Below are positions 31,243 through 34,200 of a DNA stretch of 64,000 nucleotides, one piece after another. Origin of the DNA: Candidatus Moraniibacteriota bacterium. GTDB taxonomy: Bacteria > Patescibacteriota > Minisyncoccia > Moranbacterales > UBA1568. The translations under genes and the position numbers were made by a program. Below the pieces are notes generated by a model. That model was not told the origin of the DNA, ran no database searches, and worked only from the letters and a program-made list of their open reading frames with translations. The DNA is taken from contig JBBCGM010000002.1 in NCBI GenBank assembly GCA_037201605.1, positions 208,697 to 272,696 on the forward strand, read 5' to 3'. Within the stretch, counting starts at the first letter, position 1; each line of letters starts with the position of its first letter.

Positions 31243-34200
31243 CGAAGAAAGTGTATATAGATGTATTAGTACTACTCGGCTTAACGCATCACTGCGCTTC
31301 CACCTGTAGCCTATCAACCTGGTCATCTTCCAGGAAATCTTTCGAGATTGCTCTCGAAGTTGTCTTATCTTGGGCTTGGCTTCCCGCTTAGATGCTTTCA
31401 GCGGTTATCCTACCCGACATAGCTACTCTGCGGTGCTCCTGGCGGAACAGCAGATACACCAGAGGTTCGTTCTTTCCGGTCCTCTCGTACTAGGAAAGAG
31501 ATCCCTCAAACAACTCACGCCTACAGCAGATAGGAGACCAACCTGTCTCACGCATGTTACCACTTGTTACCAAGTGCATTGGACTATAGCTTCATCCGGC
31601 AATTTTCGTATGCCGGACTGCTGACGTTTAGTCTCTACGGGCCTCCGCTATTCGGAGTTCCCTCGATATTGCCCTTCGATTTCTCTCAGGGTTCCACCGA
31701 TATGAGTCAGCTTCTTACTCCATACTACTATGAAGTACCGCCGTGATGTGATTGGTATACTATCTTCAATTTCAAAGACGAAAAACCTATTTCTTGATGT
31801 CTTGTACCTCGGGTTCAAACTGTTCAAAAGATGATTCTAGAATCCTCTCAAGGAGAATCTCTCTCCTGAACGGTTTGAACCCAGCTCGCGTACCGCTTTA
31901 ATTGGCGAACAGCCAAACCCTTGGAACCTTCTCCAGCTCCAGGATGCGATGGGCCGACATCGAGGTGCCAAACCCTGCCGTCGATGTGGACTCTTGGGCA
32001 GGATCAGCCTGTTATCCCCAGGGTAACTTTTATCTGATGATCTTCCACACTCCTACGAGTGATGGTCGGTTCACTAACTTCCACTTTCGTGACTGATTGA
32101 CTAATCGGTCTTTCAGTAAAGCTGGCTTCTGCGTTTGCACTATCGATCCGATTTCCATCCGGATCTAGCCAACCTTAGTAAACGCCTCCGTTGCTTTTTA
32201 GGAGGCGACCGCCCCAGTCAAACTACCCACCAGGCACTGTCCCCCCACCGGATTACGGTGGTGGGTAAGAAATAAAGTCTTTGCAGGGTGGTATTCCACT
32301 AGCGACTCCACGCCCCCCGGAAGGGGCGCTTCAAAGTCTCCCACCTATGCTCGGCAGCAAAAACTCTATTTCAATACCAAGTTGTAGTAAAGCTCCATGG
32401 GGTCTTTTCGTCTTGCTGTAGGTCAACGGCATCTTTACCGTTATTGCAATTTCACCGGGATATTCGTTGAGACAGTTTTCAACTCGTTACGCCTTTCATG
32501 CGGGTCAGAACTTACCTGACAAGGAATTCGCTACCTTAGGACGATTATAGTTATCGCCGACGTTCACTGGCGCTTCGGGGATTGGCTTGCACCGCTCCCG
32601 TTAACGTTCCAGCACCGGTCAGGCGTCAGCCCCTATACTTCCCCTTACGGGTTTGCAGAGACCTGTGTTTTTGGTAAACAGTCGGTTGAAATACTTTCGC
32701 TGCGGCCGACATTGCTGTCGGCAAGGCATATTGCGAACTTACGCCTAGCTTTTTTGCCGAGTTCCTTAACGAATGCTCTCCCGTTCATCTTAGGCTACTC
32801 GCCCAGTCCACCTGTGTCGGTTTGCGGTACGGTTGCTTGCATACGAACCTTAGAAGTTTTTCCTGGCACTCTGCTCCTTTTCCTTCATCCGTATTGCTAC
32901 GGACTTCGCGTGATACCTCGGATTTGTGCGGGACGGATTTGCCTGTCCCGCGTCCTCGATACCCCGACCCCAATCCAATAAGGGGCGAAAAGTACAAGAA
33001 TGCGTCACTCCTTCGAATATGCAAGCAGTCAGGGAATATTAACCCTGTATCCATCGACTACGCTTTTCAGCCTCGCCTTAGGACCGACTCACCCTGGGAT
33101 GATCACCATGGCCCAGGAAACCTCGGACTTTCGATGTGAGGGGCTCTCACCCTCATTGCGGTTACTCATTCCAACATTCTCACTTCCGTACGCTCCACGG
33201 TCGGTCACCCTCCCGCTTCGGCGCATACGGAACGCTCTCCTACCACTTCCTCTTGCGAGGAAATCCGTAGCTTCGGTACTGTGTTTTAGCCCCGTTACAT
33301 TGTCGGCGCGAAGACTCTAGATTAGTGAGCTATTACGCACTCTTTAAAGGATGGCTGCTTCTAAGCCAACCTCCTAAGTGTCTGAGAATCTTCACTTCCT
33401 TGCCCACTTAACACAGATTTGGGGACCTTAGCTGACGATCTGGGCTGTTTCCCTTTGTGCTCCGAGCTTAGCCCCGAGTACTGACTGCCTTGGTACGCAT
33501 CGCGAGTATTCGGAGTTTGGTTGAAAGCCCTACGGCGAACCGCGAACTCTCATCCAGTAGCTCTACCCCTCGGATGTAATTTACAAGACGCTAGCCCTCA
33601 AGCTATTTCGGAGAGAACCAGCTATTGCCAAACTCGATTGGAATTTCTCCTCTACACACAAGTCATCCCCGAGTGTTGCACGGCTCGTGGGTGCGGGCCT
33701 CCACGTGGTTTTACCCACGCTTCACCCTGCTCATATGTAGCTCGTCTGGCTTCGGGTCTAGTCCACGCGACAGGGGTCGCCCTGTTCAGGCTCGCTTTCA
33801 CTGGGTCTCCGGAATTCACATCCCTTAGACAAAGCCGCGTAGAACTAACTCGTTGGATCGTGCTGCAAAAGCACGCGGTCACCGGACAAGTCCGGCTCCC
33901 ACTCTTCGTTAGTAAAGTGTTTCAGTTCTATTTCACTCCCCTTAGCGGGGTTCTTTTCACCTTTCCCTCACGGTACTAGTTCGCTATCGATCTGAAGCAA
34001 TATTTAGCCTTGGAAGTTAGTGCTCCCAGATTCAAACGGGGTTTCTCCGGCCCCGCCCTACTTGGGTACTTTTGCACCATGCAGCATCTTTTTCGCATAC
34101 AGGACTATTACCTCCTTTGGTCAGTCTTTCCAGACTGTTCTGCTAAAAAACACTTGCACGGCCCCGGTCAACCGAGTCCAAAAGCCCCGCAACCCCGTCG

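Follow-up and report, generated by a model that had tools for sequence, protein, structure and literature searches.

Our analysis of a 64,000-nucleotide stretch of the genome of Candidatus Moraniibacteriota bacterium (contig JBBCGM010000002.1, positions 208,697 to 272,696; hereafter the window) identified a 317-nt insert in its 23S rRNA gene. With a probability that we put at about 85%, this insert is a group I ribozyme intron without an open reading frame (ORF), located at position L2593 and most likely removed by two-step, guanosine-initiated self-splicing, which would let the peptidyl-transferase centre (PTC) form. The group I intron at this position is real, and it is probably self-splicing.

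The insert and its place within the gene for 23S rRNA

The Rfam scan of the window placed a full-length bacterial large-subunit (LSU) rRNA gene at 34485..31243 on the minus strand (2528 bits; model positions 1-2925 aligned), with a 5S rRNA gene downstream at 31166..31060. The alignment is colinear with the Rfam LSU model save for one insertion of about 320 nt, between ...GGGUUCAAACCGU and CGUGAGACAGG... (in longer form, ...GCUGGGUUCAAACCGU and CGUGAGACAGGUUGG...). The alignment and direct reading of the sequence together give a length of 317 nt, the figure proposed in an earlier note on this DNA, and a junction at U2593|C2594 (31870 and 31552) in the stem of 23S helix 93. The Escherichia coli numbering was derived from GGGUUUAGAACGU|CGUGAGACAG, with A2602 as the landmark, against the E. 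coli 23S sequence. The insertion site named by the earlier note, L2593, is therefore upheld; its coordinates are right as positions but not as to strand, since they were written as plus numbers while the gene lies on the minus strand.

As that note had also read, the 5' exon ends in U (31870) and the intron in G (31553). The boundary of the insert is unambiguous because the intron begins with U and the 3' exon with C, and the intron-final G differs from the final U of the 5' exon. Splice sites shifted by one base were rejected, as they would leave a wrong base at mature position 2593 or 2594 (U or G) or an intron whose last base is not G. The site is that of the I-CreI lineage (target ...AACGU|CGUGAGAC...), and the junction is identical in at least 109 related inserts. 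These came from a scan of one genome per GTDB species with the pattern TAGTC-N15-45-G|CGTGAGACAGNNNGGTC, which gave an arbitrary sample of at least 120 loci, so that all prevalences reported here are lower bounds; 109 of the loci carry an insert of 213-835 nt at the same junction.

A search with the Rfam group I intron model RF00028, suggested in the earlier note, returned a match at 31783..31560 (minus strand) that covers the full length of the model (positions 1-253) with 55.2 bits against a gathering cut-off of 50 (E = 2.8e-11). The core of the window intron was then aligned with those of 27 relatives, from the guide sequence through the 3' exon, and a structure read from the window sequence was scored against two controls, namely partners slid by 1-3 columns and 500 shuffles. 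Across the 28 sequences, standard pairs fill 89.9% of cells, compared with 34-42% for slid partners; double-sided changes occur in 39 of the 56 pairs, and none of the 500 shuffles attained any of five pairing measures. Compensatory double-sided changes are found in P2 (8/8 pairs), P3 (6/6), P5 (4/4), P6/P6a (6/7), P8 (8/8) and P9 (5/6). P4 is (nearly) invariant and P7 is invariant in 28/28 sequences, so neither is informative on covariation; such invariance is usual for the catalytic core of group I introns. Covariation thus supports the core helices P3 to P9, which follow the canonical order and include the P3/P7 pseudoknot, and together with the RF00028 score this bears out the assignment to group I. 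P3, P7, P8 and their order agree with the earlier description, which had given J7/3 as AAA; it reads AAC, a trivial difference.

The R element GUAGAGACUA (31638-31629) and the S element CUAUAGUCC (31590-31581) are identical in all 28 sequences and fit the classical R/S consensus. The terminal omegaG (G31553) is present and P10 is paired in 94% of the alignment. In addition, the window copy keeps every nearly invariant core position of the family, and its core folds with z = -4.8. The flanks, guide and core comprise the following elements:

31869..31553 (minus): whole intron, 317 nt, from the LSU model alignment and direct reading
31870..31882 (minus): 5' exon segment GGGUUCAAACCGU, 23S 2581-2593; positions -13..-4 pair with the accessory guide and -5..-1 (ACCGU) with the internal guide sequence (IGS) as P1
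31548..31552 (minus): 3' exon CGUGA, 23S 2594-2598, partner of the P10 guide
31737..31746 (minus): canonical IGS UCACG|GCGGU, best site in the intron and conserved in relatives
31717..31736 (minus): P2 hairpin ACUUCAUA-GUAG-UAUGGAGU, with double-sided changes at all 8 pairs
31711-31706 with 31625-31620 (minus): P3, GCUGAC/GUCAGC, enclosing P4, P5, P6/P6a and the R element
31700-31695 with 31668-31663 (minus): P4
31691-31688 with 31675-31672 (minus): P5
31662-31639 (minus): P6/P6a
31638-31629 (minus): R element GUAGAGACUA, which holds the 5' strand of P7
31633-31629 with 31586-31582 (minus): P7, GACUA/UAGUC; the 3' strand UAGUC is in the S element
31618-31594 (minus): P8 hairpin (G)UCCGGCA/UGCCGGA(U), co-varying
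31593-31587 (minus): J8/7, GAAGCUA
31576-31561 (minus): P9 hairpin CACUUG-GUAA-CAAGUG with a GNRA loop and double-sided changes in 5/6 pairs
3' of P9, within 31553..31576 (minus): tail GUAACAUG, whose last base is omegaG (31553)

Internal guide, accessory exon guide and splice-site hairpin

Each intron 10-mer was scored for pairing with the ligated exons ACCGU + CGUGA, and a single guide site stood out: UCACGGCGGU (5'-3') at intron nt 124-133 (31746..31737), where 10/10 positions are paired. Its GCGGU (31741-31737) forms P1 with ACCGU, and the sole wobble, G31741·U31870, falls at the 5' splice site, as expected of a U·G pair between splice site and internal guide; its UCACG (31746-31742) forms P10 with the 3' exon CGUGA (31552-31548). 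Judged from this pairing, UCACG|GCGGU is the canonical internal guide, in the textbook group I arrangement. The motif abuts P2 on the 5' side, and about 70 relatives among the loci listed have it in the form YCACGGCGGY. Relatives from Acidimicrobiia and other phyla outside the Candidate Phyla Radiation (CPR) have the exon AACGU, and only 3-5 nt separate their guide, UCACUGCGU, from the splice site. The exon base at -4 changes jointly with its partner in the guide (C-G versus A-U), with exon ACCGU accompanied by GCGG and AACGU by GCGU.

The earlier note had offered another segment, the 10-mer GUUUGAACCC, as the candidate internal guide. Since the canonical guide exists at 31746..31737, this segment is not the IGS: it pairs exon positions -13..-4 and supplies no G for the U·G wobble at the splice site, and used as an IGS it would leave CGU unpaired or set U(-1) opposite A. 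The complementarity itself holds, as GUUUGAACCC (31820..31811) is the perfect complement of exon GGGUUCAAAC (31882-31873, -13..-4), and none of 200 shuffles of the intron gave a complement as good.

Our comparison found such an accessory guide in 60 of the 109 introns among the loci listed, always between the splice site and the IGS. It tracks the host exon, the 10-mer of the relatives pairing with 23S 2581-2590 in the exon/guide variants GGGUUCAGAC with GUCUGAAUCC, GGGUUCAAAC with GUUUGAAYCC, and GGGUUUAGAC with GUCUAAAUCC. Exon position -8 forms C-G in 55/60 and U-A in 5/60 introns, whereas position -6 forms G-C in 43, A-U in 16 and G·U in one. The pair at -11 is G·U in 42/60, which argues for selection on RNA pairing and not for a DNA repeat.

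The ungapped register of the 10-mer was extended through the splice site with no refitting. In this register a conserved mismatch sets C(-3) opposite A in 49/60 introns; the partner of G(-2) is C in 57/60; and U(-1) is paired with A in 50/60, paired with G in 6/60 and opposite C in 4/60. Intron positions +1..+12 pair with the nucleotides just 5' of the 10-mer, with abundant compensatory changes at +1 (U-A 32, U·G 11, A-U 7, G-C 6), +2 (C-G 23, A-U 13, G-C 7, U-A 5) and +8 (U-A 22, C-G 22). The hairpin is 84% paired in register, compared with 24-49% when slid, and the +1..+12 arm, which had no part in choosing the register, is likewise 84% paired. Exon and L1 together form a hairpin of about 21-25 bp that encloses the 5' splice site. 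The window hairpin (31883..31810) has a minimum free energy (MFE) of -36.5 kcal/mol (z = -6.4). Folding with the exon context, another check put forward in the earlier note, gave an MFE structure of the whole precursor that contains this hairpin, including the 10-mer. On this evidence the 10-mer is real and under selection, as one arm of a conserved hairpin that rivals P1 and in which U(-1) pairs with A. The elements 5' of the IGS are these:

31811..31869 (minus): expanded L1 domain, from the MFE fold and pairing in 60 relatives
31869-31862 with 31831-31824 (minus): arm of L1, intron +1..+8 UCAGGAGA with UCUUUUGA
31861-31832 (minus): apical hairpins of L1
31823-31821 (minus): ACA opposite U(-1), G(-2) and C(-3)
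31820-31811 (minus): accessory guide GUUUGAACCC
31747..31810 (minus): linker from accessory guide to IGS, with motifs conserved in the listed 5' regions
31810-31793 (minus): A-rich conserved stretch GAGGUACAAGACAUCAAG, which takes the form GAGGNNNAAGACAUCAA in many introns of class 2 (defined below)
about 31786-31761 (minus): optional hairpin UUUUUCGUCUUUGAAAUUGAAGAUAG, UUUUCGUYU...RAUAG in some class-2 introns, aligned by Rfam to the first stem of the model

Inspection by eye gave no convincing partner for the A-rich linker (GAGG..AAGACAUCAA) or for the UUUUCGUCU...GAUAG hairpin.

The hairpin strand ACAG (31823-31820) has the same sequence as 23S A2600-G2603 (31546-31543), the natural partner of CCGU in helix 93, and the mismatched A31821 occupies the position expected for the bulged A2602. 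This makes the intron hairpin look like a surrogate for the helix that the intron interrupts, a likeness that could simply follow from the shared exon partner.

Related introns, endonuclease genes and genomic surroundings

The related introns fall into two classes. Class 1 (e.g., loci L094, L011 and L067) has 45-65 extra nt between P7 and P3' (P7.1/P7.2) and a guide near the 5' end, and lacks an accessory strand. The Thermosynechococcus locus L094 belongs to this class, which fits the published drawing of the cyanobacterial L2593 intron (PMC1995217). In class 2 (e.g., L004, L054 and L110), which has 60 members including the window intron, P7 leads directly into P3' and P8, the splice site is 56-247 nt away from the guide, and L1 is expanded and contains the hairpin. 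P4-P6 and P7 motifs are common to both classes, which we therefore regard as one family. The window intron has no P7.1/P7.2 extension: its P7 GACUA is followed by AAC, P3' GUCAGC and P8, and 88 nt lie between P7 and the 3' end, compared with 120-150 nt in relatives that have the extension. In structure it thus differs from the described L2593 introns (PMC1995217). Across the L2593 classes, loss of P7.1/P7.2 coincides with gain of the L1 that bears the accessory guide.

Among the loci listed, every class-2 host labelled at phylum level belongs to Patescibacteria, the others being labelled just 'bacterium', and the loci of Acidimicrobiia, Chloroflexota, Omnitrophota, Armatimonadota, Proteobacteria and Cyanobacteria are all class 1. 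The 23S rRNA of the window is 82-83% identical to those of metagenome-assembled genomes (MAGs) of Moranbacteria/Moraniibacteriota (L116, L105), and its identity with the 23S rRNA from a Patescibacteria MAG (L091) is about 80%. The host belongs to the Patescibacteria (CPR) and is related to Moranbacteria. For the intron there is no close relative among the loci listed, the nearest being L071 with 69% identity over 284 nt. Both classes circulate in related hosts: the intron of L105 is of class 1 and has an ORF, whereas those of L116 and L091 are short and of class 2. At one further locus (L066, a Gammaproteobacteria MAG), ...GAACGT is followed by the normal exon CGTGAGACAGT, and a second copy of GCGTGAGACAG occurs about 450 nt on; this insert is probably not at 2593 but a little downstream, at a target that is duplicated or similar.

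The earlier note had found no room for a homing endonuclease gene in the intron, and our searches agree. The longest ORFs in the insert are of 59-60 amino acids and none has a Pfam match; a tblastn comparison with the LAGLIDADG genes of related introns gave no remnant in the insert beyond a 7-amino-acid stretch (VPVETK), which corresponds to the R element of the ribozyme. No free-standing homing endonuclease gene of this kind is present elsewhere in the window. The intron therefore does not encode a single-motif LAGLIDADG endonuclease of the I-CreI family, and this copy has either lost such a gene or always lacked one. Four class-2 relatives (L039, L060, L068 and L033; 708-742 nt) do contain a single-motif LAGLIDADG ORF of about 150-180 codons. 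The ORF of L039 matches I-MsoI, I-CreI and I-CvuI, which are endonucleases of chloroplast introns at the same site, over its full length (E = 1e-35 to 1e-13). Because of this homology, the link to the I-CreI intron lineage made in the earlier note rests on the proteins of same-site relatives as well as on the shared site. In L039 (intron nt ~128-673), as in L060, the endonuclease ORF extends into the ribozyme core: the C-terminal ...VPVETK of L039 is encoded by the invariant CCCGUAGAGACUAAA (J6/7-P7), so that the same bases serve protein and catalytic RNA.

The rRNA locus of the window consists of 23S and 5S genes only, with no 16S rRNA gene at the Rfam cut-off within the 64 kb. The 16S gene is unlinked, because the region 5' of the 23S gene (34486-34952) leads directly into a gene for a TPR-repeat protein. 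The only two tRNA genes in the 64 kb are both tRNA-Leu, CAG and CAA, at 25778-25862 (minus) and 61203-61286 (plus), and no intron-containing tRNA was detected at the Rfam gathering level within the window. GC content is about 54% for the window and 0.46 for the intron match. A run of very large secreted-type proteins (37682-45887, minus) adjoins the rRNA locus. It encodes a 1529-amino-acid protein with 22 FG-GAP repeats, a 248-amino-acid FG-GAP protein and a 728-amino-acid protein with a Peptidase_S74 (endosialidase chaperone) domain; two more ORFs in this run (928 and 1035 amino acids) have no family above the Pfam cut-off.

Proposed folding pathway, rival readings and known systems

As a tentative proposal, to which we give somewhat less than even odds, the window intron would represent a compact, CPR-restricted subclass of L2593 introns that has lost P7.1/P7.2 and gained a bipartite recognition of the 5' exon, in which a hairpin invaded by the IGS acts as conformational switch and exon clamp, and maybe as a guide for reverse splicing. 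The exon strand and the first 60 intron nt would be transcribed first, and the hairpin would close at once, holding the PTC strand and the splice site. The closed form would sequester the splice site opposite A; U(-1) paired with A is reportedly a poor substrate geometry. The IGS would emerge 60 nt later, and after folding of the core its GCGG would displace ACAG (31823-31820) and capture CCGU to give the reactive P1, with the conserved C·A mismatch at -3 as a possible nucleation point for the invasion. After that, the exon/intron strand would form one uninterrupted stack, with the accessory guide as its first partner, the IGS as its second and the 3' arm of the +1..+8 helix as its third. In topology, P1 and the accessory helix would make an H-type pseudoknot, along which the A-rich linker (31810-31793) is positioned to run. 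The 10-nt accessory guide would stay paired as a clamp that retains the 5' exon until ligation, so that about 14 contiguous pairs, and not 4-5, would hold the exon after the first step, and P10 would replace the +1..+8 helix beside P1 for ligation.

Several observations count against our interpretation of the intron and its folding. The RF00028 score exceeds the cut-off by only 5 bits, P1 is short (4-5 bp), and L2 of the window is GUAG where most relatives have GNRA. By nearest-neighbour estimates, opening CCGU in the hairpin costs about +8.5 kcal/mol, compared with about -5.3 kcal/mol for the P1 duplex, and the invasion would therefore need tertiary docking energy. Conservation of G(-2)-C (57/60) and U(-1)-A (50/60) means that the closed form may itself be functional, in a way that a clamp leaves unexplained. 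Finally, the 60 sequences are related, and counts of co-varying cells therefore overstate the number of independent events.

The short P1 and the marginal Rfam score would also suit a degenerate ribozyme, one that has lost self-splicing, needs a host protein or chaperone, or is heading for loss, as would the lack of a maturase or endonuclease gene and the non-GNRA L2 of the window copy. We hold this to be unlikely, given that the window copy retains every core position that is nearly invariant in the family and that the helices fold with the z-score given above; what lowers the Rfam score is not a damaged core but short peripheral elements, together with 86 nt of 5' sequence specific to the lineage. 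It is more improbable still that the long hairpin is itself the reactive P1, with GUUUGAACCC and its 5' neighbours as the true guide and UCACGGCGGU serving P10 or another role. The hairpin is indeed conserved, co-varies through the splice site, is the MFE structure, and has U(-1)·G in 6/60 relatives, but U(-1) is opposite A in 50/60 relatives and in the window, and a Watson-Crick pair at the cleavage site reportedly makes a poor group I substrate. Moreover, GCGG is perfectly complementary to CCGU with the G·U pair, occupies, directly 5' of P2, the position homologous to that of the IGS in the short-P1 relatives, and co-varies with the exon across the classes. Self-splicing through a P1 formed with GCGG thus remains our preferred reading.

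We see equally little prospect that the insert goes unspliced, either retained in mature 23S rRNA (as in Simkania) or excised by RNase without ligation to leave a fragmented 23S rRNA. A bacterial 23S group I intron is said to be unspliced and would be a precedent, fragmenting intervening sequences (IVSs) are known in bacterial 23S rRNA, and the ~21-bp exon-intron helix resembles an RNase III-type duplex. However, all elements for catalysis and exon alignment are intact and under purifying or compensatory selection (28-60 relatives), and 317 nt retained in helix 93 at the PTC, or a cut in the exon arm, should do harm. The ends of the insert do not pair with each other, unlike those of classical IVSs; its 5' end pairs internally and with the exon. 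It also lies in helix 93, whereas the known IVS sites are in helices 9, 25 and 45 of bacterial 23S rRNA. A survey of CPR rRNA genes places IVSs of this kind at sites 23IS2 and 23IS4 (PMC11270868).

A further alternative concerns the role of the accessory guide, which might serve mainly mobility: some 20 nt of complementarity to 23S 2581-2598 would favour reverse splicing into new hosts, and the free intron might also bind ribosomal precursors in the same way. The complementarity is contiguous (-13..-4 by the guide, then -5..-1 and +1..+5 by the IGS), most members of the subclass lack an ORF yet occur across many CPR lineages among the loci listed, and both intron classes are found in closely related 23S backgrounds (L105 versus L116). 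Reverse splicing into rRNA is discussed as a pathway in one source, which also states that RNA-based mobility of group I introns lacks direct evidence in nature (PMC3984707). The pairing of +1..+12 and of G(-2)/U(-1) concerns the precursor and not the free intron, and ordinary homing followed by gene loss explains the distribution, because members of the subclass with endonuclease genes exist. We rate a role mainly in mobility as unlikely.

L2593 introns and ORF-less group I introns of CPR 23S genes are already published, and the window intron is ordinary for its host group. According to Tsurumaki et al. (2024), rRNA introns are frequent in CPR bacteria, as the earlier note had stated; position 2593 is a CPR intron hot spot (LAGLIDADG_1; site 23IS12) and is among the fourteen 23S sites at which insertions recur, and the group I introns without an ORF in CPR 23S genes number 222 in that study (PMC11270868). 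The CPR 2593 introns of that study resemble ours in host group, site and Rfam family; in the parts available, introns are classed by Rfam match and ORF content, with no secondary structure, IGS, absence of P7.1/P7.2 or exon-pairing hairpin described (PMC11270868). Our intron is thus one more case of CPR tolerance for introns in the catalytic heart of the ribosome, with the I-CreI target site as a recurrent entry point in CPR 23S genes.

Group I introns at 23S 2593 have also been published for chloroplasts and cyanobacteria, and the site of the window intron is identical to that of Cr.LSU of the Chlamydomonas chloroplast, the intron of I-CreI, and of the L2593 introns of Synechococcus C9/C1 and Thermosynechococcus (Haugen et al., 2007; PMC1995217). 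These introns are of about 745-890 nt, contain a LAGLIDADG gene and have a P7.1/P7.2 extension of about 65 nt; the published drawing of the cyanobacterial intron has a short P2, a short P5 and P7.1/P7.2, of subgroup IA type (PMC1995217). The core motifs AUAUCGGUG...CAAUACCGAGGGAAG...CCGUAGAGACU...AUAUAGUCC are common to the window and L2593 introns, including that of Thermosynechococcus (L094). In contrast to Cr.LSU and the cyanobacterial introns, whose relatives among the loci listed have the IGS near the 5' splice site, the window intron lacks both an ORF and P7.1/P7.2, has its IGS 123 nt into the intron behind an expanded L1, and has a second exon-binding strand in that L1.

The use of two intron segments that pair with adjacent stretches of the 5' exon may be likened to the EBS1/EBS2-IBS1/IBS2 pairing of group II introns. 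This is an analogy that implies no homology, as group II introns are an unrelated ribozyme class with other chemistry and architecture. For a second exon guide in natural group I introns, our literature search (open-access subset) gave only work on P1 extensions and engineered guides, and within that literature the compact architecture, accessory guide and splice-site hairpin are apparently undescribed. Of specialist interest are the 60 introns among the loci listed, in CPR or unclassified hosts, whose splice site is embedded in a hairpin with a second exon guide. If the clamp and switch proposal is correct, it would explain how a ribozyme with a 4-bp P1 retains its 5' exon, and would link intron folding to the order of rRNA folding at the PTC.

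The closest parallels are the P1 extension of the Tetrahymena intron and engineered extended guides (PMC3984707, reference list; PMC3895272), where extra pairing beside P1 likewise stabilizes substrate binding; in the window intron, the +1..+8 helix takes the role of a P1 extension. In the Tetrahymena and engineered systems the extension lies on the 3' side of the splice site, in one continuous strand with the IGS. The accessory guide of the window intron, in contrast, is a separate strand that binds 10 exon nt 5' of P1, would form a pseudoknot that crosses P1, and also competes with it, and under the clamp and switch proposal it would be a natural counterpart to the extended guides of engineered trans-splicing ribozymes.

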